The notes beneath the pieces were generated by a model, which worked only from the letters and a program-made list of their open reading frames with translations, was not told where the DNA came from and ran no database searches. A DNA stretch of 15,578 nucleotides. Origin: a virus. Taxonomy: Duplodnaviria; Heunggongvirae; Uroviricota; Caudoviricetes. Made by a program: the position numbers and the translations under genes. Below, piece after piece: positions 3,940 through 15,578 of the stretch (position 1 is the first letter of the stretch; each line of letters opens with the position of its first letter). The stretch is taken from positions 1 to 15,578 of the IMG/VR virus record IMGVR_UViG_2534682222_000014; one strand, given 5' to 3'.

Positions 3940-4326
3940 TCAGGCGGCTGCACCCGCCGGTTCATATCTGCTGATCGTTATCTCTACCCGACCTTTCGGC
4001 ACTACGGGTCCCCATTCCACCAGCATGCGCTTAATCTGGCTGTCGTCTTCCCAGACACCCGCATGCGTCAGCGCGTCAAACAGGGCTTTGTTGTAATTAT
4101 CGATATCCCGGCGGCGCGCATCCGGCGGGTACAGAGTGATTTCAACCGCTGCCAGTTCAGTCGATGGCTTCGGGAGACGTCGTAATTGCTCAATGATCGC
4201 CACGCAGGCAGCGCTCTGGTATTTACGACCATCAGCGCTAATGAGGTGACGACCGGCCAGCGGCCCCTTATTAGGGGCGCGCCAGTAAGTGTTCACGCTC
4301 GGAGGAAAAGGCAGGATCAGTTTCAC
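3940..4326 (-). CDS. rusA: RusA-type Holliday-junction resolvase
   Basis: 128 aa, N-terminus KLILPFPPSVNTYW and acidic DIDNYNKALFDALTHAGVWEDD match RusA. GTG start overlaps the upstream stop as GTGA with GGGGAGAGG 4 nt upstream. Confidence 0.85.
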   Translation of the reverse strand: MKLILPFPPSVNTYWRAPNKGPLAGRHLISADGRKYQSAACVAIIEQLRRLPKPSTELAAVEITLYPPDARRRDIDNYNKALFDALTHAGVWEDDSQIKRMLVEWGPVVPKGRVEITISRYEPAGAAA

Positions 4327-7625: not shown

Positions 7626-7725
7626 GGTTTGAATCCTCTTTAGTTAGCATTCTTACATCGTATATGGACAGCATACTTACGTCAATAAAATGTAAGATTG
7701 CTAACGTACATTCCGAGGAGATTTT
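7626..7725. promoter_or_regulatory. Divergent oR-like operator/promoter region (pR for cro, pRM for cI)
   Basis: Minus strand: TTGACG -35 (plus 7685-7680) with TATACG/TACGAT -10 candidates upstream of cro. Plus strand: TGGACA (7665-7670) and TAAAAT (7686-7691) upstream of cI. Half-site CTTAC/GTAAG at 7652-7656, 7676-7680 and 7692-7696; 9-mer ATGTAAGAT at 7690-7698. Confidence 0.5.
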
Positions 7726-8358
7726 ATGGATACCGTTGGCAGCAGACTGAGATTTAGAAGAAAGCAGAAAAAACTTACCCAGCGCGATGTGGCTGAGTGG
7801 GCAGGAGTAAGCGCGTCTGCTGTGACCCAGTGGGAAAGTGATTTAACAAAACTTTCTGGTGAGAACTTGATATTGGTGTGTAAATGCCTTCAGTGCTCGC
7901 CAGAATGGTTGGTTTTTGGTTCAGGCGATATCGAAAATGGCATTAACATCAACTTGATGTCTGCCAGAGAGGTCCCTCTCATATCATGGGTGCAAGCTGG
8001 TAATTGGACGGAAGTAATTGGAAATCCTAATAATGAACAAGTGAAAACCACTCGAAAACTTTCTGATTCCGCCTTTGCTTTGAGGGTTAAGGGAGATTCA
8101 ATGACTTCTAGCCAGGAGTTGAGTATTCCTGAAGGTTCTATTGTTATTGTTGAACCAGAGTTCGGCTTCGTGGATGAGGCAAACGGTAAAATTGTCGTTG
8201 CTCAAACGGTATCTGGTGGTGAGGCAACTTTAAAAAAGCTGGCGATAGACCCACCGTTTTCGTACCTAATCCCACTGAATCCTGCGTTTAAACCCATTGA
8301 GGTGAATCAAGAGACCAATCTAATTGGGATAGTTAAACAAATTATCATTGACCTTTAG
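7726..8358 (+). CDS. cI: cI-type prophage repressor (N-terminal XRE HTH, C-terminal LexA-like S24 peptidase)
   Basis: 210 aa, GAGGAG RBS. HTH (LTQRDVAEWAGVSASAVTQWE), Ala-Gly cleavage site (VQAGNW), Ser nucleophile in KGDSM and Lys in ATLKKL, typical of RecA-stimulated autocleaving repressors. Confidence 0.85.
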   Translation: MDTVGSRLRFRRKQKKLTQRDVAEWAGVSASAVTQWESDLTKLSGENLILVCKCLQCSPEWLVFGSGDIENGININLMSAREVPLISWVQAGNWTEVIGNPNNEQVKTTRKLSDSAFALRVKGDSMTSSQELSIPEGSIVIVEPEFGFVDEANGKIVVAQTVSGGEATLKKLAIDPPFSYLIPLNPAFKPIEVNQETNLIGIVKQIIIDL

Positions 8359-8374: not shown

Positions 8375-8402
8375 AAGCCCGCTGATCATGCGGGCTTTTT
8401 TA
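8375..8402 (+). terminator. Intrinsic terminator directly after the repressor gene
   Basis: AAGCCCGC-TGATCAT-GCGGGCTT hairpin followed by TTTTT, 17 bp after the cI stop. Not followed by a U-run on the opposite strand, so rightward only. Confidence 0.7.
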
Positions 8403-8414
8403 TGCCTGTGAAAA

Positions 8415-8469
8415 TATAGTAAGCAAACTTACAAAATAGACTTGACTGTAAATGTAAGATGTCTAATAT
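8415..8469 (+). promoter_or_regulatory. pL-like early-left promoter with operator sites
   Basis: TTGACT (8442-8447), 16-bp spacer, TAATAT (8464-8469). Near-palindromic 18-mer TAGTAAGCAAACTTACAA at 8415-8432, and ATGTAAGAT at 8452-8460 inside the spacer, identical to the 9-mer in the oR region. Confidence 0.5.
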
Positions 8470-8505: not shown

Positions 8506-8709
8506 ATGAAGATAGAGTTGGTTGTTAACGGGAAAATTACTGCTGAGTGCAGTGATGAATCGGAGTTTCTGGCATTCAATGCTGCCGTTTTTAGCGCTCT
8601 ATCGGACATGCAACTTACCCTTCATTCCGAACGAAGGGCTCGTTCAAAATCTAAAATGGCGGCCTTCAATGAGAAGTTTTTTAAAACGGATCCCACGGGT
8701 CGCAATTAA
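8506..8709 (+). CDS. Hypothetical small protein (67 aa) downstream of the pL-like promoter
   Basis: ATG at 8506 (track ORF starts at TTG 8491). AGGA lies immediately next to the ATG, so translation signals are weak. Internal basic patch HSERRARSKSK but no N-terminal Arg-rich motif, so not called N. Overlaps a convergent ORF. Confidence 0.3.
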   Translation: MKIELVVNGKITAECSDESEFLAFNAAVFSALSDMQLTLHSERRARSKSKMAAFNEKFFKTDPTGRN

Positions 8710-8914
8710 GAGAATCAAGAAGCTTAATGGTTTGATAGGTGATGGCTTCCTGTTTAACAGTGTTTTCTGGGCTTGACAGTTGATCGCGCAATAATTGTAT
8801 TTGGTTATGCAGGTCATCTGATAGTGGGCCCTCATTAGCACATATTGCAGCTGAAATGGTCTTAATCGCAGCTTCAATAGCAGTGAGTCTTAACTCAATA
8901 ATATCGTTATTCAT
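8681..8914 (-). CDS. Hypothetical small acidic helical protein (77 aa), convergent with and overlapping the previous ORF
   Basis: ATG at 8914 (MNNDIIELRLTAIEAAIKTISAAICANEGPLSDDLHNQIQLLRDQL...), embedded in a longer track ORF. Weak RBS. AT-rich. 3' end overlaps the plus-strand ORF by 29 bp. Confidence 0.3.
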   Translation of the reverse strand: MNNDIIELRLTAIEAAIKTISAAICANEGPLSDDLHNQIQLLRDQLSSPENTVKQEAITYQTIKLLDSLNCDPWDPF

Positions 8915-9183
8915 AGGTTTATCTTCTTGGCTGTGTGAGAACTCCAAGAATACCACCGAGCCTGATGTGGTGAAAAGACAGGCATAGCCCAGACGATATC
9001 TGAGTGGCTTAAAAAACAGATGGGAACCGGTGGAATCCCGGTACACAACGAAAAGAGCGCTGGCATGCAAAAAATATCTCGCAGCCGTAGCAGTACCAAA
9101 AGCCAGGATGGAACGGCAGAAACGCGGTAGTGCTCTTTTTGATGTGGTAAACCCGTAGTAGCTGTACCAGATGCTGTGTGTAG

Positions 9184-9258
9184 TCTTGGCGGTACCAGGG
9201 TCTTCAACCTTATGCAAGGGGGACGAAGATAATGTTCTACCTCGGTACCGCCCTTTTT
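9184..9258 (+). ncRNA. Long hairpin with 3' T-run; candidate terminator or processed sRNA with DicF-like ends
   Basis: Perfect 9-bp stem GGCGGTACC (9188-9196) / GGTACCGCC (9244-9252) enclosing a 47-nt loop with internal pairings (CCTT-ATGC-AAGG, TCTTC/GAAGA), followed by TTTTT (9254-9258). The 5' arm TTGGCGGTACCAG and the 3' CCGCCCTTTTT resemble my recollection of E. coli DicF. Not verified. Confidence 0.25.
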
Positions 9259-9444
9259 ACACAACAGACAAGGGCATCACCGGGCGACGGGCTCATAACC
9301 CAATCCACCCGGGCAAAAAGAAAGCGGTCTCTCAAGCCGCCGACCAATGCAGGTGCCCTTCTCTGTTGTGTATGGAGAAAGTTCGGCGGTGGCAGCCGCC
9401 TTAACTTCGTGTATGGACTAAAACCTTGTGCAGAGGAAAGTTAA

Positions 9445-10362
9445 ATGAAATTACCTAAGTTCCGTAACGCAATCGTGTACCGCGCCACACTACCTAGCAT
9501 TGAAGCTATCGAGGGGCATCTGCTTGAACTCCCCTACTCCGAGATTGGTGAAACTGAGTTTTCACGCGCCTCTTTTGTGCCAAACACGATCACTGGCGAA
9601 TTGGTCACCCCAATATCAGGTGGGTATGCCATCGTGATCCGCCATGATCAGAAAATCATTCCCCAGCATGTTGTTTTGAAGGAAGCCGCAGCACGGATCC
9701 AAAGAATCGAAGATATGTCCGGGAGTAAAATCAAACGTATCGAACGATTAGCAATTATCGACAGCGTCCGCGTTGACCTGTGTAAACGGGCATTTGTTAA
9801 ATCAACGCTGATCCTTGCGTTGTACAGCACCAACGAAAAGCTATTAGTGGTCAATACGACCAATAAAAATATTGCCGGTATGGCTGTGGCTATGCTGGTG
9901 AAAGTTGTCGGTTCCGTTAAAACAGAAACAATCAACATTAGCGATATTAAGAACGGTTTAACTACGCGGTTGAAAAACTATATCAATGGCGTGGCCAATG
10001 CTTTTGAAGGGTTTACCGTCGGCAATTATATCCAGCTGTCCCGCCTTGCCGATCAAAATGAAGTTATTCGCTACTCAGCTGAACACGACTCAATTCAAAG
10101 CGAGCTAGTTGATAGCCTTAATAGCGGCTTTACCGCTGATAAAATGGAGCTAGCAGGATGCGGTGTATCGTTCATCCTCACCGAAAATTTCCATTTTTCG
10201 CGCATCAATACCCAAGCCCAAACATTCAACGATGAAGATGATAAAGCATTTCAATGGCGCCATCAGGCCGGGACGGATCTACTCCAATTCAGCAAAGTAG
10301 TAAACCTGATGTGTGATCTTCTTTCGTACAAAGAAGAACAGCCACAAAAACCCGCAGCCTAA
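9445..10362 (+). CDS. rdgC: RdgC-like recombination-associated protein
   Basis: 305 aa, GAGGAAA RBS. N-terminal FRNAIVYR and GYAIVIRHDQKIIPQHVVLKEAAARIQRIE align by eye with E. coli RdgC ([37 protein letters not shown]); length matches. Confidence 0.65.
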   Translation: MKLPKFRNAIVYRATLPSIEAIEGHLLELPYSEIGETEFSRASFVPNTITGELVTPISGGYAIVIRHDQKIIPQHVVLKEAAARIQRIEDMSGSKIKRIERLAIIDSVRVDLCKRAFVKSTLILALYSTNEKLLVVNTTNKNIAGMAVAMLVKVVGSVKTETINISDIKNGLTTRLKNYINGVANAFEGFTVGNYIQLSRLADQNEVIRYSAEHDSIQSELVDSLNSGFTADKMELAGCGVSFILTENFHFSRINTQAQTFNDEDDKAFQWRHQAGTDLLQFSKVVNLMCDLLSYKEEQPQKPAA

Positions 10363-10469
10363 TACCCCAGACCGTAATTAACCCATGTCATGGGTTGGGT
10401 TGCTGCACGCTAAATTTAGCAATTCATTAATTTAATAGCGCGGTGCAGCGCGCCAATATGGAGAAAACC

Positions 10470-11009
10470 ATGAGCTACATTCAGACATTATCCGGCAAAC
10501 ATTTTAATTACCTCGATATCCAACAGGACGATATCGTGATCGAGGATATTGCTACCGCGTTGTCTCATATCTGCCGTTTTGCAGGGCATCTTCCTGAGTT
10601 TTATAGCGTCGGCCAGCATAGCGTTTTAACCAGCCACCTCGTTCCGCAGGAGTTTGCATTAGAAGCACTGCTTCATGATGCTGCTGAAGCCTACCTGCAG
10701 GACATCCCATCCCCGCTTAAGCACCTGCTTCCGGATTACCAGGTGATCGAAGCTCGCGTGGATGCAGCCATTCGGCAGAAGTTCGGCCTACCGACGGAAC
10801 AACACCCAACTGTGAAATATGCCGATCTGGTGATGCTCGCCAGCGAACGCCGCGATTTTGAGGTTGACGAAGGTTCCGTGTGGCCATGCCTCGAGGGAGT
10901 TGTCCCAACGGATTTATTCATTATCAATCCAGTTCGTCCTGGCCAGTCATACGGCATGTTCATCAATCGCTTTAACGAATTGATGGAGCAGCGCCAATGC
11001 GCCGCATGA
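10470..11009 (+). CDS. HD-domain phosphohydrolase (YfbR-like 5'-deoxynucleotidase family)
   Basis: Start ATG at 10470 with GGAG 6 nt upstream (track ORF begins at GTG 10443). H...HD metal-binding signature (SVGQHSVLTSHL ... EALLHDAAEAY). 179 aa. Confidence 0.6.
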   Translation: MSYIQTLSGKHFNYLDIQQDDIVIEDIATALSHICRFAGHLPEFYSVGQHSVLTSHLVPQEFALEALLHDAAEAYLQDIPSPLKHLLPDYQVIEARVDAAIRQKFGLPTEQHPTVKYADLVMLASERRDFEVDEGSVWPCLEGVVPTDLFIINPVRPGQSYGMFINRFNELMEQRQCAA

Positions 11010-11173
11010 AGGTAAAAGAACTCGTAGCGGAGGCGTTTGCCTCCGTTGCTGAATTGCCACCAAAGCATGCACCGCTTATGCGCGAAGTCGCCACCAGACT
11101 AGAAGCTACGTTCGCAGCATTAAAAGAGTCTCTGGTGCAACTGGAACAGGAACGTAAAGGTAAAACGCCATGA
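11006..11173 (+). CDS. Hypothetical small protein (55 aa), translationally coupled
   Basis: Below the track threshold, found by hand. ATG 11006 overlaps the upstream stop as ATGA and its own TGA overlaps the next ATG as ATGA. Product MKVKELVAEAFASVAELPPKHAPLMREVATRLEATFAALKESLVQLEQERKGKTP. No separate RBS. Confidence 0.4.
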   Translation: MKVKELVAEAFASVAELPPKHAPLMREVATRLEATFAALKESLVQLEQERKGKTP

Positions 11174-11424
11174 CCGTATTTGAATATCTCCAGGCTCATC
11201 CAAATACCACCAGCGGTGAAATCGCCAAAGGCATGAACAAAACGACGCCAGCGGTCGCCGGAGCATTATCGCAACTCTATGGCACAGGCCGGATCGTGAA
11301 GTCTGGTGTTCGCAAGGGCATTCCAACATACCGTGTTAACGATATGCCGTTTGGGTGCAGTAACAGCCTAACCATGATGTTTAACCAGCTATTGAATAGC
11401 GCCAGACAGGGAGCAGCCCAATGA
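11170..11424 (+). CDS. Hypothetical small protein, possible winged-helix DNA-binding fold
   Basis: 84 aa; TSGEIAKGMNKTTPAVAGALSQLYGTGRIV resembles a winged-helix recognition segment. Start and stop both overlap neighbours as ATGA. Confidence 0.45.
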   Translation: MTVFEYLQAHPNTTSGEIAKGMNKTTPAVAGALSQLYGTGRIVKSGVRKGIPTYRVNDMPFGCSNSLTMMFNQLLNSARQGAAQ

Positions 11425-11978
11425 AAGCACTCAACAAACAGGCGTTGCGTGAAGCGGACAATGCCGCAAACATAGCTTCATGGGGTAAATGGGAGTCGTA
11501 TAAGCCACACAAAGGCGCGAGAGGATATGAAGTAAAAGTTGGTGCAAAGGCGGTAGCTCAACACTGCCTTAAAGTTGATTCGGCATTCATCGCCGCCGCC
11601 AACCCGCCCACCGTACTGGCGCTGCTGGATGAGCTGGAAGCCGCAGAGAAGCGCAATGCTGAATTACAGAGAGAGAATGCATATATCTGCAACCGACACA
11701 AAGAACTGGACCTGTTAATCGGGAAGAACATTCTGGTCATGCAAGCTGCGATTATCGAATGGCAGGCAACTGGTGACGCTAAGAACGGGCTGTCATGGAT
11801 TTATAACACGCTGTTTGGGCCTGGTGAATTGCCTGACGAATCTGAGAAAGATGCTCAGGCCTACTTTGACCGCAAATATGCACCGATTGACGAAGAGCTT
11901 ATGGCGCTTCACAAGTGGTTTTGGGAACAAAGTGAAGCCGAACGTGCCGCCGCTGGCATTGGCGTGAAGGGGGAATGA
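11421..11978 (+). CDS. Ead/Ea22-like phage protein
   Basis: 185 aa; FIAAANPPTVLALLDELEAAEKRNAELQ matches the conserved motif I recall for the Ead/Ea22-like family; typical location in a lambdoid early-left region. Confidence 0.5.
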   Translation: MKALNKQALREADNAANIASWGKWESYKPHKGARGYEVKVGAKAVAQHCLKVDSAFIAAANPPTVLALLDELEAAEKRNAELQRENAYICNRHKELDLLIGKNILVMQAAIIEWQATGDAKNGLSWIYNTLFGPGELPDESEKDAQAYFDRKYAPIDEELMALHKWFWEQSEAERAAAGIGVKGE

Positions 11979-11979
11979 G

Positions 11980-12357
11980 ATGGCACTGACGAAAAAACAG
12001 CGTGCAGAACTGCGCATGAAGTTTGGCGGTCGCTGTGCTTATTGCGGCTGTGAACTTGGCGATAAGTGGCATGCAGACCATGTAGAAGCGGTACGAAGAA
12101 ATATCAGCAACGGCTACGCAATGGACAGGCCAGAAAATGACACGGTCAGCAACATGGTTCCAGCATGCATTCCATGCAACTTGTTCAAAATGTGCAGCAC
12201 AGTAGAAGACTTTCGCAGCCGCATAGCCACTCAGGTTGATGTAACTCGCCGTGCGTCAAGAAGTTACCGCACAGCGGAATCATTTGGCCTGGTTAAACAG
12301 ACTAACGCACCAGTTGTGTTCTGGTTCGAGCGGTATCAAGAGGGGGATAACTTGTGA
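11980..12357 (+). CDS. HNH endonuclease
   Basis: 125 aa, AAGGGGG RBS. CAYCG...WHADHV...PACIPCN zinc-binding HNH signature. Confidence 0.75.
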   Translation: MALTKKQRAELRMKFGGRCAYCGCELGDKWHADHVEAVRRNISNGYAMDRPENDTVSNMVPACIPCNLFKMCSTVEDFRSRIATQVDVTRRASRSYRTAESFGLVKQTNAPVVFWFERYQEGDNL

Positions 12358-12572
12358 CCAAAATATTCCTGAAGAATTATCCGCGCCAAAGCCGTGTTAA
12401 AGAGGCTCTATTTTTCCTTCTCTTTCTTATTTTAATGATTCCAATATCACCGATAGTCCTCATCTGGTTAGCAGGAGAACAGGCAGAAAAGATAGCTGAG
12501 TGGTATAGCTCCATCGTATGGGGGCCATTTAACAAACTGCACAACAAATTAAATCCGTACAGGGAGGACTAA
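12354..12572 (+). CDS. Small single-pass membrane protein (72 aa), hypothetical
   Basis: GTG start overlapping the HNH stop as GTGA, with AGGGGGA 6 nt upstream. Central hydrophobic helix ALFFLLFLILMIPISPIVLIWLA. Confidence 0.5.
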   Translation: MTKIFLKNYPRQSRVKEALFFLLFLILMIPISPIVLIWLAGEQAEKIAEWYSSIVWGPFNKLHNKLNPYRED

Positions 12573-12575
12573 CCC

Positions 12576-13358
12576 ATGACAACTAACAACCACCCGGCGC
12601 ACGGTCCTGTATCACTCGATCGCCTGCACCAGATAAGCGAAATACTCAGCAAAGCAGCAGCGCAAAGTGACGGCGGTAATCTCGGCTACGCAATGGCTGA
12701 TGCTGTCAAGGTGATTGATGAAGTCCTGAATGCTGAGCCTGTGCTTTATGCCGCTGAGGAAACTCTGGCTTATGCAAAGATGGGTGATCTTCACCTTAAG
12801 TGCCTGTCTCAGCCAATGGGAGATGCGGTAATTCCGCTCTACACTGCCACGCCAGCGCAGGTAGTGCCGGAGAATTGCGTAACAGCAGAACACCGTCGCG
12901 TTATTGAAATGCTGCTCAATGTTTGCTGGGCCGCATTCGAACTCGCAGATGATAGCTGTCAGCAAGATGTTGATGGCGAAGAGTGCCACGTTGTTCCAGA
13001 CGACGCATTTCAGAAGCTAAGTGATGCGCTGGACGAAATAGAAAACACTATCCCGACAGAAGATGTCGACAGGCCAGACGTATTCCTTGCCTGGTCGGCA
13101 ATGCCAAGGGCAGCGCTGAAATCTATTCTCCAGGCTGGCAACTCTCCGGTAACTCCGGATGACGTACTCCGCATGGACTGGCTGGTATCTAAAACCGTTG
13201 ATGTTCGTGAGCCTATGGTTTACGGAAGCCATAGCATTTTCTGGTCGCAGACCATCACGGATGAAGATGACGATTATCACGCGACCAAATTACGTGAGCA
13301 AATCGATGCAGCTATGGCAGCTGAGCAGGCAGCAGCACCGCAGCAGGAGAATGTATAA
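12576..13358 (+). CDS. Hypothetical acidic phage protein (260 aa)
   Basis: ATG at 12576 with AGGGAGGA 8 nt upstream; long ORF with coding-like composition; no motif I can assign. Confidence 0.55.
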   Translation: MTTNNHPAHGPVSLDRLHQISEILSKAAAQSDGGNLGYAMADAVKVIDEVLNAEPVLYAAEETLAYAKMGDLHLKCLSQPMGDAVIPLYTATPAQVVPENCVTAEHRRVIEMLLNVCWAAFELADDSCQQDVDGEECHVVPDDAFQKLSDALDEIENTIPTEDVDRPDVFLAWSAMPRAALKSILQAGNSPVTPDDVLRMDWLVSKTVDVREPMVYGSHSIFWSQTITDEDDDYHATKLREQIDAAMAAEQAAAPQQENV

Positions 13359-13359
13359 C

Positions 13360-13929
13360 GTGAACAATTTAATGATCGACCTCGAATCCATGGGCAAAAA
13401 ACCAAATGCCCCTATCGTCTCCATAGGTGCCGTGTTCTTCGATCCGCAAAGCGGTGAACTGGGTCAGGAGTTTTACAGCGCCGTTAACCTTGAAAGCGCT
13501 ATGGAGCAGGGAGCGGTGCCGGACGGTGACACTATTCTGTGGTGGTTAAGACAAAGCTCAGAAGCACGATCAGCAATCTGTGTTGATGATGCGATGCCGA
13601 TATCATCTGCCCTATCTGAACTGAGCCATTTCATTAATCGGCATTCTGATAACCCTAAATATTTAAAAGTTTGGGGCAATGGAGCTACTTTCGACAACGT
13701 TATATTGCGCGGCGCATATGAGCGTGCCGGCCAGGTTTGCCCGTGGCAATTTTGGAATGATCACGACGTCAGAACCATCGTCACATTAGGCAGAGTTGTA
13801 GGTTTCGATCCTAAGCGTGATATGCCATTTGATGGGGTTGCACATAACGCACTGGCTGATGCCCGCCACCAGGCGAAATATGTTTCAGCGATTTGGCAGA
13901 AACTAATCCCAACCACCAGCAACAACTAA
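13360..13929 (+). CDS. DEDDh-type 3'-5' exonuclease (DnaQ-like fold)
   Basis: Motifs MIDLESMG (D-x-E), WGNGATFDNVIL (Asp) and HNALADARHQ (His, Asp). Start ambiguous: ATG 13351 (AGGAGA directly adjacent), GTG 13360 (about 10 nt spacing, chosen) or ATG 13372. Track ORF extends upstream to 13159 in the same frame, overlapping the previous gene. Confidence 0.65.
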   Translation: MNNLMIDLESMGKKPNAPIVSIGAVFFDPQSGELGQEFYSAVNLESAMEQGAVPDGDTILWWLRQSSEARSAICVDDAMPISSALSELSHFINRHSDNPKYLKVWGNGATFDNVILRGAYERAGQVCPWQFWNDHDVRTIVTLGRVVGFDPKRDMPFDGVAHNALADARHQAKYVSAIWQKLIPTTSNN

Positions 13930-13969
13930 AATTTTCCCCGGGTGCAGCCGGGATAATGGAGAAATAACT

Positions 13970-14206
13970 ATGAGCAATATTTTCCAGTTAGCTCCCAACG
14001 ATTGGGTTTGTGAAAGCGTTCTGATCGCGGTTACCGGGCTCAAACCCGGAACCATCACCCGTGCCAGAAAAGAATGCTGGATGATTGGGAGGGAGTATAT
14101 CCACGTATCGCCTGACGGAAATCCCAAACCTTCCAGTGAGTGCATGTATAACAGAAAGGCTGTAGATGCCTGGGTCGCTTCAATGAAAAGCAAGCAGCCA
14201 GGGTGA
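13970..14206 (+). CDS. xis: Excisionase-like protein
   Basis: 78 aa, GGAG 8 nt upstream, immediately upstream of int in the same orientation. Small basic protein resembling prophage excisionase-like proteins; assignment partly positional. Confidence 0.6.
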   Translation: MSNIFQLAPNDWVCESVLIAVTGLKPGTITRARKECWMIGREYIHVSPDGNPKPSSECMYNRKAVDAWVASMKSKQPG

Positions 14207-14264: not shown

Positions 14265-15578
14265 ATGGATAAAGTCACATATCCAACAGGCGTCGAAAAC
14301 CACGGTGGCACATTACGCATCTGGTTTAATTTTAAAGGTAAGCGTGTCAGGGAAAGTCTCGGTGTCCCTGACACCGCTAAGAACAGAAAGGTAGCCGGGG
14401 AACTGCGGACATCAGTATGTTTTGCCATCCGCACAGGAACCTTTGATTATGCAACCCAGTTTCCTGACTCCCCTAACCTCAAGGCTTTTGGTGTAAGTAA
14501 AAAAGACATTACAGTGAAAGAACTTGAAGAAAAATGGCTGGATCTGAAACGGATGGAAATCTGCGCGAACGCATTCAATCGCTATGAATCTGTCGCAAGG
14601 AATATGGTGCCGAGGATCGGAGGTAATCGCCTGGTGTCAGCAGTAACCAAAGAGGAATTGCTGTATCTTAGGAAAGATTTGCTAACTGGTTATCAGAGTC
14701 CGACGAAAAATAAAGCCCCGGCAAAAGGGCGAAGCGTTGTTACTGTGAACTATTACATGACGACAATGGCCGGAATGTTTCAGTTTGCTGCGGATCACGG
14801 TTACTTAGAGGTGAACCCATTCGAGGGAATTAAACCTCTGAAAAAAGCCAGGGCAGAACCAGATCCTCTGTCTCGTGATGAATTTATTCGCCTGATAGAT
14901 GCATGCCGGCATCAGCAGACGAAAAACCTGTGGTCATTAGCAGTGTACACAGGAATGCGTCACGGGGAACTGGTCTCCCTGGCCTGGGAAGATATCGACC
15001 TGAAGGCGGGAACAATTACCGTCAGGCGTAATTATACGAAACTTGGTGAGTTCACTCTACCGAAAACCGAGGCAAGTACAGATCGAGTGGTGCATCTTAT
15101 CCAGCCCGCAATCAGTATCCTGAAAAATCAGGCTGAAATGACAAGGCTGGGCAGGCAATATCACATTGAAGTGCAGTTACGTGAGTACGGTCGTTCGGTG
15201 AACCATGAGTGTACATTCGTCTTTAACCCGCATGTGGTCAGACGCAGTAAGCAGGTCGGATTTATCTACCGGGTCGATTCAGTAGGCGACTCATGGGAAG
15301 CTGCACTAAAGCGCGCGGGGATCAGACACAGAAAGGCGTACCAGTCACGACATACCTATGCGTGCTGGTCATTATCTGCTGGTGCAAACCCGAGTTTTAT
15401 TGCCAGTCAGATGGGGCATGCGAGCGCGCAGATGGTGTTCAATGTTTACGGTGCATGGATGGCTGACAGCAGCGCAGAGCAGATCGCAATGCTGAATCAG
15501 AAGCTGGCAGATTTTGCCCCATTGATGCCCCATAGCCACGAGAGCAGTACGGGAGGATTATTAAAATCAGTAAGTTAA
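14265..15578 (+). CDS. int: Tyrosine site-specific integrase (IntR/DLP12-type N-terminal arm-binding domain)
   Basis: 437 aa, GGAGGT RBS. N-terminus TGVENHGGTLRIWFNFKGKRVRESLG...GTFDYATQFPDS matches Rac/DLP12-type integrases. C-terminal catalytic region shows R...HxxR...Y-context (RHTYACW, GHASAQMVFNVYGAW). Stop TAA at 15576-15578. Confidence 0.9.
   Translation: MDKVTYPTGVENHGGTLRIWFNFKGKRVRESLGVPDTAKNRKVAGELRTSVCFAIRTGTFDYATQFPDSPNLKAFGVSKKDITVKELEEKWLDLKRMEICANAFNRYESVARNMVPRIGGNRLVSAVTKEELLYLRKDLLTGYQSPTKNKAPAKGRSVVTVNYYMTTMAGMFQFAADHGYLEVNPFEGIKPLKKARAEPDPLSRDEFIRLIDACRHQQTKNLWSLAVYTGMRHGELVSLAWEDIDLKAGTITVRRNYTKLGEFTLPKTEASTDRVVHLIQPAISILKNQAEMTRLGRQYHIEVQLREYGRSVNHECTFVFNPHVVRRSKQVGFIYRVDSVGDSWEAALKRAGIRHRKAYQSRHTYACWSLSAGANPSFIASQMGHASAQMVFNVYGAWMADSSAEQIAMLNQKLADFAPLMPHSHESSTGGLLKSVS

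Follow-up and report, generated by a model that had tools for sequence, protein, structure and literature searches.

The lambdoid phages closest to the locus described here carry no recombination genes of their own. In a survey of 325 lambdoid genomes, 314 of them infecting Enterobacteriales, Zheng et al. (Genome Res 2025, PMC12315714) found that 68 (22%) of the Enterobacteriales panel have no recombination (Rec) module, and that these mostly carry many Chi sites. One such phage, LLS, shows poorer growth when RecB or RecC is missing; LLS-type phages are also without an N gene, and the authors guessed at a put-like RNA. The survey mentions RdgC homologues beside cI, "sporadic HNH and DnaQ-type nuclease genes" beside int and a yfdP/yfdQ/yfdR cluster, none of which count as recombination genes for its authors, since they are found next to full Rec modules as well (PMC12315714). 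A second described relative is the yfdQ-yfdR-yfdS-yfdT cluster of the cryptic prophage CPS-53 of Escherichia coli K-12, where YfdR binds domain I of DnaA (Phe46) and hinders DiaA and DnaB from binding, and where YfdR with YfdQ and YfdS or YfdT inhibits initiation at oriC when over-supplied from multicopy plasmids (Noguchi and Katayama 2016, PMC4776307). Here we describe the early-left operon in a stretch of 15,578 nucleotides (IMG/VR record IMGVR_UViG_2534682222_000014; hereafter the window, always at its full length), which is the regulatory half of an E. coli lambdoid prophage.

We consider it probable, at roughly 0.8, that the part of the window from 8.4 to 15.6 kb is the cI-repressed pL operon of a lambdoid E. 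coli prophage of the 'no Rec module, high Chi' class, that is, of the LLS functional type. About one lambdoid phage in five belongs to this class, and the finding, which contributes a further unstudied member, is of small value; both the lack of recombination genes and accessory genes of this type were already described in 2025 (PMC12315714). The gene order of the window is lambdoid throughout, running int-xis, early-left, cI/cro, cII, replication, nin region, Q and lysis. E. coli NZ_LR536430.1 matches the entire window at 99.97-99.98% identity, the sole difference being one cassette; its prophage measures 47 kb, and a near-identical prophage is already in RefSeq, annotated alike.

Absence of recombination genes and distribution of Chi sites

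Searches of the window by tblastn with Exo, Bet and Gam of lambda, Erf, Abc1 and Abc2 of P22 and RecE and RecT of Rac gave nothing below an E-value of 0.1, and Pfam and PHROG scans of its larger open reading frames revealed no annealing-protein family. In the early-left operon, neither an annealing protein, a Rec nuclease and a single-stranded DNA-binding protein nor an anti-RecBCD protein was found by these scans, which bears out the absence of Red and RecET that had been proposed in an earlier note on this DNA. In the 47-kb prophage of the relative, a serine invertase and the integrase are the only annotated recombinases.

The distribution of Chi sites (GCTGGTGG) agrees with that of the class. 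The window holds nine on the minus strand and two on the plus strand, where about 0.25 are expected per strand, and Chi is the commonest of the 168 octamers of the same composition. In the prophage of the relative the counts are 18 against 3 (about 0.9 and 0.7 expected), and the related loci, over 2.1 Mb, show 5.3 against 0.9 per 10 kb. For phage LLS we counted 20 against 3, in agreement with the published 23 of which 20 are in the active orientation (PMC12315714). Phages that do carry Rec modules served as controls: 2 and 0 sites were counted in HK022 and none in the segments of lambda and P22. The predominant orientation makes the sites active for a RecBCD enzyme that enters at the right end, on the cos/lysis side; of the nine sites on the active strand, seven fall within the early-right, nin and lysis part, which is the side of that entry. 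In a phage without an annealing protein or a RecBCD inhibitor, host RecBCD and RecA would act at these oriented Chi sites, and recombination there would support late replication and packaging. Class membership and the Chi pattern together suggest that the phage depends on RecBCD; RecBCD-aided growth has been demonstrated for LLS, whereas the phage of the window is known from its sequence.

Backbone and translation blocks of the early-left operon

An intrinsic terminator ends the cI transcript and is followed by pL (TTGACT-16-TAATAT at 8442-8469), which is overlapped by both pL operators; as these are of the cI type, the genes from rdgC onward are placed as early, cI-repressed genes. The 14-bp operator, GTAAG-N4-CTTAC, occurs in five copies, three between cro and cI (7642-7705) and two at pL (8419-8467), and the five define the immunity specificity of the phage. 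A match to Trp_leader in the Rfam scan was set aside as a chance match, being explained by the terminator at 8375-8397. A search for promoters and terminators within 9445-13929 gave no convincing one, and the genes of this region form one cI-repressed transcription unit. The leader from pL to rdgC extends over about 975 nucleotides with no convincing plus-strand gene. Transcription from pL would cross in it a KilS-like RNA with its terminator and then a structured RNA, before entering three translation blocks.

The three blocks are deduced from the three gene starts of the operon that are free of upstream overlap, namely those of rdgC, the HD gene and xis: rdgC stands alone, a coupled chain runs from the HD gene to the exonuclease gene, and xis-int follows. 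In the chain, ATGA overlaps are present at 11006, 11170 and 11421 and a GTGA overlap at 12354, with gaps of one nucleotide before the HNH gene and three before the gene for the acidic protein. All of these had been correctly read in the earlier note, as had the family names RdgC, HD, Ea22-like, HNH and DEDDh exonuclease, each of which was reproduced by Pfam, PHROG or PDB matches. Its count of five consecutive junctions in one co-translated unit needs revision: the tight coupling stands, with seven consecutive junctions from HD to exonuclease after correction of the exonuclease start, and rdgC forms a block of its own. The exonuclease frame starting at 13159 (13159-13929) is over-extended, because the exonuclease domain begins at about its residue 69; the true start is either ATG 13351 (Shine-Dalgarno GGAGA, overlap of 8 nucleotides) or GTG 13360, the choice of the Prokaryotic Genome Annotation Pipeline (PGAP), with a gap of one nucleotide. 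Tight junctions were also considered as the mark of a special unit and rejected as such, since the rest of the phage is packed likewise: among the same-strand junctions of the early-right and lysis genes (PGAP annotation of the relative), 6 of 12 overlap, three of them by 4 nucleotides.

Each of the three free starts has a small hairpin upstream with a GTGCA or GTGCAG loop, beside a purine-rich Shine-Dalgarno sequence, which is GGAGAAA before HD and xis. Small G+C-rich hairpins of this kind, with loops GTGCA, GTGCAG or GGCA, are found at 9385-9400, 9424-9436, 10438-10453 and 13937-13952 on the plus strand and at 3943-3958 on the minus strand, that is, just upstream of rdgC, HD, xis and, on the opposite strand, ant. 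ATGGAGAAA follows the hairpin before HD and that before xis, and the hairpin before HD is also kept in K-12 upstream of yfdR. These hairpins may be translation-control or recombination-linker elements. The features of the window are collected in Table 1.

Table 1. Annotated features of the window, arranged by coordinate where one is given
Feature	Position	Strand	Evidence or remark
Holins, Q-type antiterminator, DUF968, Ant/Rha antirepressor, RusA, Dam-type methyltransferase, replication protein, CII-like, Cro		-
Chi sites (GCTGGTGG), nine	439, 618, 2743, 3866, 4017, 7190, 7347, 11207 (11207-11214), 13913	-
Chi sites, two	4380, 5142	+
cI	7726-8358	+	other plus-strand genes: region under study, excisionase, integrase
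Intrinsic terminator, end of cI transcript	8375-8397	+	8-bp stem with 6 G-C pairs, then TTTTTT
oL/pL	8419-8469	+	operators 8419-8432 and 8454-8467 overlap promoter 8442-8469
77-residue antisense gene	8681-8914	-	phrog_28250; PGAP annotates it in the relative; transcription opposed to that of the pL leader
KilS/DicF-like small-RNA segment	9147-9258	+	ends in intrinsic terminator GGCGGTACC...GGTACCGCC then CTTTTT
Three-way-junction leader RNA	9260-9378	+	about 115 nucleotides, directly upstream of first early-left gene; covariation, covariance model
RdgC-like DNA-binding protein, 305 residues	9445-10362	+	PF04381 E = 3e-33; PDB 2owl E = 3.5e-14; operon head gene
YfdR orthologue, HD-domain 5'-deoxynucleotidase	10470-11009	+	PGAP start (GTG also at 10443); phrog_318 E = 4e-97; PDB 2gz4 E = 2e-13
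55-residue protein	11006-11173	+	ATGA-coupled to YfdR stop; phrog_12248 E = 4e-32
84-residue winged-helix protein (MarR/ArsR/FeoC-like fold)	11170-11424	+	AlphaFold2 predicted local distance difference test (pLDDT) 83.6; phrog_1687
Ea22-like protein, 185 residues	11421-11978	+	PF13935 E = 1e-14, residues 5-93; exchangeable cargo
HNH endonuclease, 125 residues	11980-12357	+	phrog_2118 E = 3e-58; Pfam HNH 21.5 bits (cut-off 21.4)
DUF4014 small protein with hydrophobic segment, 72 residues	12354-12572	+	PF13198 E = 9e-47; in the cassette of HNH
Modular acidic protein, 260 residues	12576-13358	+	N-terminal 195 residues common to proteins ending in DUF551
DnaQ/DEDDh 3'-5' exonuclease (Rv2179c-like)	13351-13929	+	PF16473 E = 2.5e-74; PDB 8ken E = 3e-10
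Excisionase	13970-14206	+	PF06806 E = 4e-32
Tyrosine integrase	14265-15578	+	prophage end beside yecE/yecN/cmoA in the relative

A backbone comprising the leader RNA, a head gene, a YfdR-type gene, the genes for the 55-residue and winged-helix proteins, the DnaQ-like exonuclease, Xis and Int is common to LLS and its relatives. The order in LLS is cI, yfdP, yfdQ, HD, gp36, gp35, DnaQ-like exonuclease, xis and int. LLS and the window share the lambdoid layout, with the backbone followed by xis and int, as well as the leader RNA and the Chi pattern, and both are without an N gene and without an annealing protein, nuclease, single-stranded DNA-binding protein or anti-RecBCD module. The identities are 69% for the HD protein, 86% for the exonuclease (LLS gp34) and 67% for the 55-residue protein, which matches the product of a small LLS gene next to gp37 (tblastn 29669-29803, within LLS gene 36). 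They differ in the head, which is YfdP with YfdQ in LLS and RdgC in the window, and in four extra cargo genes (1.9 kb) that the window carries between the winged-helix gene and the exonuclease gene. The two cI proteins are 40% identical, and integrase and attachment site are also different, yecE in the window and the tmRNA gene in LLS.

The HD protein is an orthologue of K-12 YfdR, with 63% identity over 178 of 178 residues (E = 5e-88), the H...HD...D motif and a shared position; K-12 YfdR is annotated as a 5'-deoxynucleotidase. In both the CPS-53 cluster and the window, some 110-130 nucleotides separate a head gene from yfdR, whose end is overlapped by small genes, and an excisionase gene comes next; a conserved GCGCGGTGCAGCGC hairpin followed by GGAGAA stands ahead of the yfdR start. 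The two differ in that RdgC is unlike YfdQ and the 55- and 84-residue proteins are unlike YfdS and YfdT, and CPS-53 is without the leader RNA found in the window. By its homology the protein probably interferes with DnaA; it would bind domain I of DnaA and degrade deoxynucleoside monophosphates, damping the initiation of host replication. DnaA binding and inhibition of initiation were demonstrated for K-12 YfdR, with multicopy plasmids, whereas the YfdR of the window is known as a sequence.

As for the other backbone genes, structure comparison of the 84-residue protein (11170-11424) pointed to a winged-helix fold, the best Foldseek matches of the model in the PDB being TFE-alpha, MepR and CzrA, at E-values of 3e-4 and weaker and a template-modelling (TM) score of about 0.6. 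The exonuclease covers the whole domain of PF16473 (249 bits, profile positions 1-177 of 177), and its IDLES, FDN and HNALAD motifs can be read. It shares the DEDDh motifs with phage DnaQ/DEDDh exonucleases such as PDB 8ken, an 'Exodeoxyribonuclease' of 227 residues that we take to be DexA of T4, although sequence similarity is modest. Judged from its sequence family, the enzyme probably trims 3' ends, and oligonucleotides may be among its substrates; the activities of all proteins in the operon are ones that we infer.

Conservation was surveyed in IMG/VR contigs; a search of genome contigs with RdgC gave three loci. Among 73 viral loci anchored on the exonuclease, the HD gene is present in 66, the 55-residue frame in 62 and the 84-residue winged-helix frame in 39. 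By comparison, the Ea22-like gene and HNH were each found in 4 and the acidic protein in 6, and DUF4014 was missing from all 73 as well as from all 150 related loci. Exo, Bet and Gam of lambda, Erf of P22 and RecE and RecT of Rac were found in none of the 73, and Abc2 in one. Between 0.5 and 4.9 kb separate HD from the exonuclease in related loci, and all four combinations of HD type with exonuclease type occur.

Several points weigh against the assignment to the LLS type or limit its reach. The direct comparison covered Bet, RecT, Erf, Exo, RecE, Gam and Abc; the Sak, Sak4 and Gp2.5-like families were covered through Pfam and PHROG profiles only, the scans outside the region took in open reading frames of about 60 residues and more, and absence from the whole prophage rests on the annotation of the relative, not on the window. 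The loci were gathered by similarity searches and are not an unbiased sample. HD and exonuclease occur together in 90% of the exonuclease-anchored loci though their alleles reassort, so that the backbone may be more of a functional unit than the word 'mosaic' suggests. Finally, yfdPQR also occurs in phage ArgO145, which has a full Rec module (PMC12315714), and backbone and Rec absence are therefore not strictly linked.

The head gene, the cargo genes and competing explanations

The RdgC-like protein has a full-length match to PF04381 (residues 6-276) at 115.9 bits against a gathering cut-off of 25. Against the NCBIfam RdgC equivalogs, however, its best score is 104.7 bits where the cut-offs are at least 227. 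As it falls far below all of these cut-offs, it was deduced to be a phage paralogue and not the chromosomal orthologue. PMC11077077 cites E. coli RdgC as inhibiting RecA strand exchange rather than promoting annealing, and describes the RdgC fold as common to RexA. By analogy, the phage protein would form a ring that binds DNA and restrains RecA, or would act like its structural relative RexA.

This resemblance leads to the strongest of the alternatives, the proposal of the 2025 survey that RdgC is an exclusion or switch protein of the RexA kind, expressed in the lysogen together with cI and not an early lytic protein. The protein has the Pfam RdgC domain and a sequence match to the E. coli RdgC structure 2owl, and its gene is placed beside cI, as rexA is. 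The position of rdgC in this phage nevertheless rules against co-transcription with cI. A strong terminator (8375-8397) follows cI, and two cI operators, the promoter and a further terminator (~9190-9258) all lie before rdgC; with these elements between them, rdgC is placed for repression by cI and not for co-expression with it. Unlike rexA, the gene thus lies downstream of oL/pL and outside the cI transcript, it has no RexB-like partner, and PADLOC gave no match for the RdgC-like, HD or small proteins. We therefore regard a lysogenic role as possible but unlikely, though a RexA-like activity expressed from pL is compatible with these data. That rdgC stands here behind oL/pL and two terminators, and so is an early gene and not the part of the cI transcript that had been suggested, goes slightly beyond the literature.

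Among the 73 exonuclease-anchored loci the head slot is occupied by YfdP with YfdQ in 52 and by RdgC in 13, never by both together; RdgC and YfdP with YfdQ are thus mutually exclusive occupants of one slot, a second point slightly beyond the literature. A second type of RdgC, 20-22% identical to that of the window, occurs in the same slot. RdgC was considered as a distant homologue of YfdQ and rejected, as no similarity was found and the hits at 20-22% are the divergent RdgC type. A more ambitious idea is that the backbone is one N-independent, Red-independent early programme of LLS-type phages, in which RdgC or YfdQ and the exonuclease would shape the action of RecA and RecBCD at Chi, YfdR would stop host initiation and the leader RNA would allow passage of the terminator. 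We hold this as a speculation with rather long odds; if it were true, the RdgC/YfdPQ slot would have a new kind of recombination-control function and would not be a bystander.

The earlier note had gone further and suggested that the hydrolase, the nucleases, the acidic protein and the small membrane protein could form an uncharacterised module for DNA processing or host takeover; taken at its widest, the products of all nine genes from rdgC to the exonuclease would be one machine that replaces Red or RecET. All nine genes are indeed co-transcribed with seven coupled junctions, several products act on nucleic acids, and HD, the 55-residue frame and the exonuclease co-occur in 85-90% of the exonuclease-anchored loci. 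We nonetheless find this improbable. Four of the nine genes (Ea22-like, HNH, DUF4014 and acidic protein) occur in just 0-8% of related operons and are cargo, for which reason a nine-gene machine is unsupported; the unrelated YfdP and YfdQ replace RdgC in most relatives, the RdgC-bearing operons of the Klebsiella type have HD in 0 of 34 and the exonuclease in 2 of 34, the HD-exonuclease distance is variable, as seen above, and tight junctions are general in the phage. The HD hydrolase is not uncharacterised, being the orthologue of YfdR (PMC4776307), and the DnaA binding of K-12 YfdR lends the idea of host takeover partial support for this gene, not for the module, whose arrangement has also been published. 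A contrary possibility, that the genes are unrelated morons with promoters of their own, describes the operon by half: the cargo is exchangeable but is served by the common promoter.

HNH and DUF4014, moreover, entered by a very recent cassette swap. The other 15 kb of the two prophages agree at 99.97% identity, and the 582 nucleotides at 11984-12565 with these two genes replace a 175-nucleotide gene for a 61-residue protein (12585-12759 in the matching locus of the relative), one breakpoint coinciding with the start codon and the other falling immediately ahead of the next ribosome-binding site. The cassette is 97% identical to phage HK225. The PHROG label of the DUF4014 family, 'released from the phage upon host infection', was left unused, as it is also borne by the unrelated gp20 of P22 with 471 residues. 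The operon of LLS type, as a fixed backbone between whose genes cargo is swapped at exact gene boundaries, is a third point beyond the literature.

Lambda and the Stx phages have a counterpart of the cargo in their exo-xis ('ea') region (ea22, orf60a, orf61, orf63; PMC10834534), which has the same place in the pL operon beside xis. Early expression, small accessory genes, high mosaicism and a protein with an Ea22-type N-terminal coiled coil are common to both; lambda differs in having Exo, Bet and Gam upstream, and orf60a, orf61 and orf63 are absent from the window. Against lambda Ea22 itself, tblastn aligns just 19 N-terminal residues (E = 0.15). The protein is hence called Ea22-like and not Ea22, because its N-terminal part matches and its C-terminal domain is not of the lambda type. 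Its residues 73-172 (11637-11936) match the PADLOC 'DpdH' model PDLC02890 (127 positions) with E = 2e-34, the only strong PADLOC match and one whose label is doubtful; either a prophage-derived protein was the source of the model, or the Dpd DNA-modification island has the same domain.

The acidic protein, encoded at 12576-13358, is built of N-terminal, middle and C-terminal modules, with conserved linkers PLYTAPPAQ and AGNSPVTPD and a tail AAPQQE; its relatives mix the modules freely, many with DUF551 at the C-terminus, and the linkers look like crossover points. Only helices are predicted, the AlphaFold2 model from an alignment of 38 sequences (pLDDT 43) being too poor to use, and phmmer against the PDB gave nothing. 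Its length is close to that of Bet (261 residues), and it is one of two candidates for an unrecognised single-strand annealing or mediator protein, the other being RdgC, or YfdQ in relatives. The head slot lies in the early-left operon where lambdoid recombination genes are found, it is always filled (by RdgC of the first type, the divergent 22% RdgC or YfdP with YfdQ), and the PHROG family of the RdgC-like protein is labelled 'exonuclease recombination-associated'. We give a hidden recombinase little credence all the same. E. coli RdgC is reported, as cited above, to inhibit strand exchange; comparison of the acidic protein with Bet, RecT and Erf by hhalign gave probabilities below 1%, and the protein is a chain of swappable modules predicted as helices only; and strong Chi enrichment is what would be expected if a phage recombinase or RecBCD inhibitor is absent. 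The authors of the survey were likewise negative, the cluster occurring beside complete Rec modules (PMC12315714). Least likely of all is a decaying prophage whose Rec module was deleted and whose other genes are remnants: the prophage of the relative does look composite, in that it has two each of lysis cassettes and Q-type antiterminators, but the same backbone is present in the plaque-forming phage LLS and, with intact reading frames, in dozens of viral contigs, the Chi excess and strand bias imply long adaptation to life without a recombinase, and all open reading frames of the window are intact and tightly packed.

Leader RNA elements and neighbouring features

The more interesting lead from this analysis is that the leader of these N-less LLS-type phages carries a conserved, covarying structured RNA, unannotated in the phage records examined. 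It is a three-way junction in which stem P1 pairs CACAACAGACAAGGGCA with UGCCCUUCUCUGUUGUG, P2 (CCGGG/CCCGG) encloses the invariant hairpin GGGCUCAUAACCC, and P3 is variable. In an alignment of 29 distinct sequences, 97.6% of cells are paired as against 38-54% in slid registers, and 8 pairs show compensatory changes, measures that are inflated by the interrelatedness of the sequences. The covariance model, R1, scores 124.7 bits in the window and 123 bits in phage LLS. Of 33 related loci scanned with it, 27 carry one copy, placed just before the first early-left gene and scoring 80 bits or more in 12 of these loci; a scan with the core motif matched at least 120 viral contigs. Where enough downstream sequence was available (28 RNA-anchored loci), the next gene is yfdP in 22, rdgC in 3 and HD in 1; HD is present in 24 and the exonuclease in 13, and the reference recombination genes that were tested are absent from all 28.

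No Rfam family matched this RNA in a scan of the leader, at permissive thresholds too. The put RNA of HK022 consists of two stems in about 70 nucleotides just after pL and is present a second time after pR (PMC9378689). A put-type identity was rejected, as the RNA of the window is a three-way junction of 116 positions some 800 nucleotides downstream of pL; a second copy was sought in the early-right leader with filters off and none was found, and model R1 finds nothing in HK022. For lambdoid phages that lack N, the RNA is a candidate signal of early antitermination or processing; it might allow the terminator before it to be read through, or might be processed by RNase III.

That preceding terminator belongs to the KilS/DicF-like segment, itself unannotated. 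Its 29-nucleotide core at 9172-9200 agrees in 27 of 29 positions with KilS of the K-12 Rac prophage (b4833), and a long hairpin and CCGCCCTTTTTA come after it; the segment and Rac KilS have both TGCTGTGTGTAGTCYTGGCGG and the tail CCGCCCTTTTTA in common. The match to DicF is weak (16.6 bits), with an inverted repeat present. Since the terminator (~9190-9258) lies between pL and rdgC, transcripts from pL must read through it to reach rdgC. A second long hairpin lies at 9044-9146 on the plus strand, with 18-nucleotide arms CACAACGAAAAGAGCGCT and AGTGCTCTTTTTGATGTG and a closing stem that resembles P1 of the leader RNA; in some loci of the Klebsiella type it is this unit that stands before rdgC instead, and the covariance model gives it a weak score of 18 bits.

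The 77-residue gene on the opposite strand of the leader gave no defence-system match in PADLOC. In lambda, P22 and Rac, sieB has the same relative position, and the gene may serve for exclusion and be expressed in the lysogen. Outside the window, the region 850000-886500 of NZ_LR536430.1 contains two lysis cassettes and two Q-type antiterminators with three tRNA genes (Gly, Thr, Ile) between them, which suggests that the late region of the relative's prophage is a composite or a tandem recombinant.

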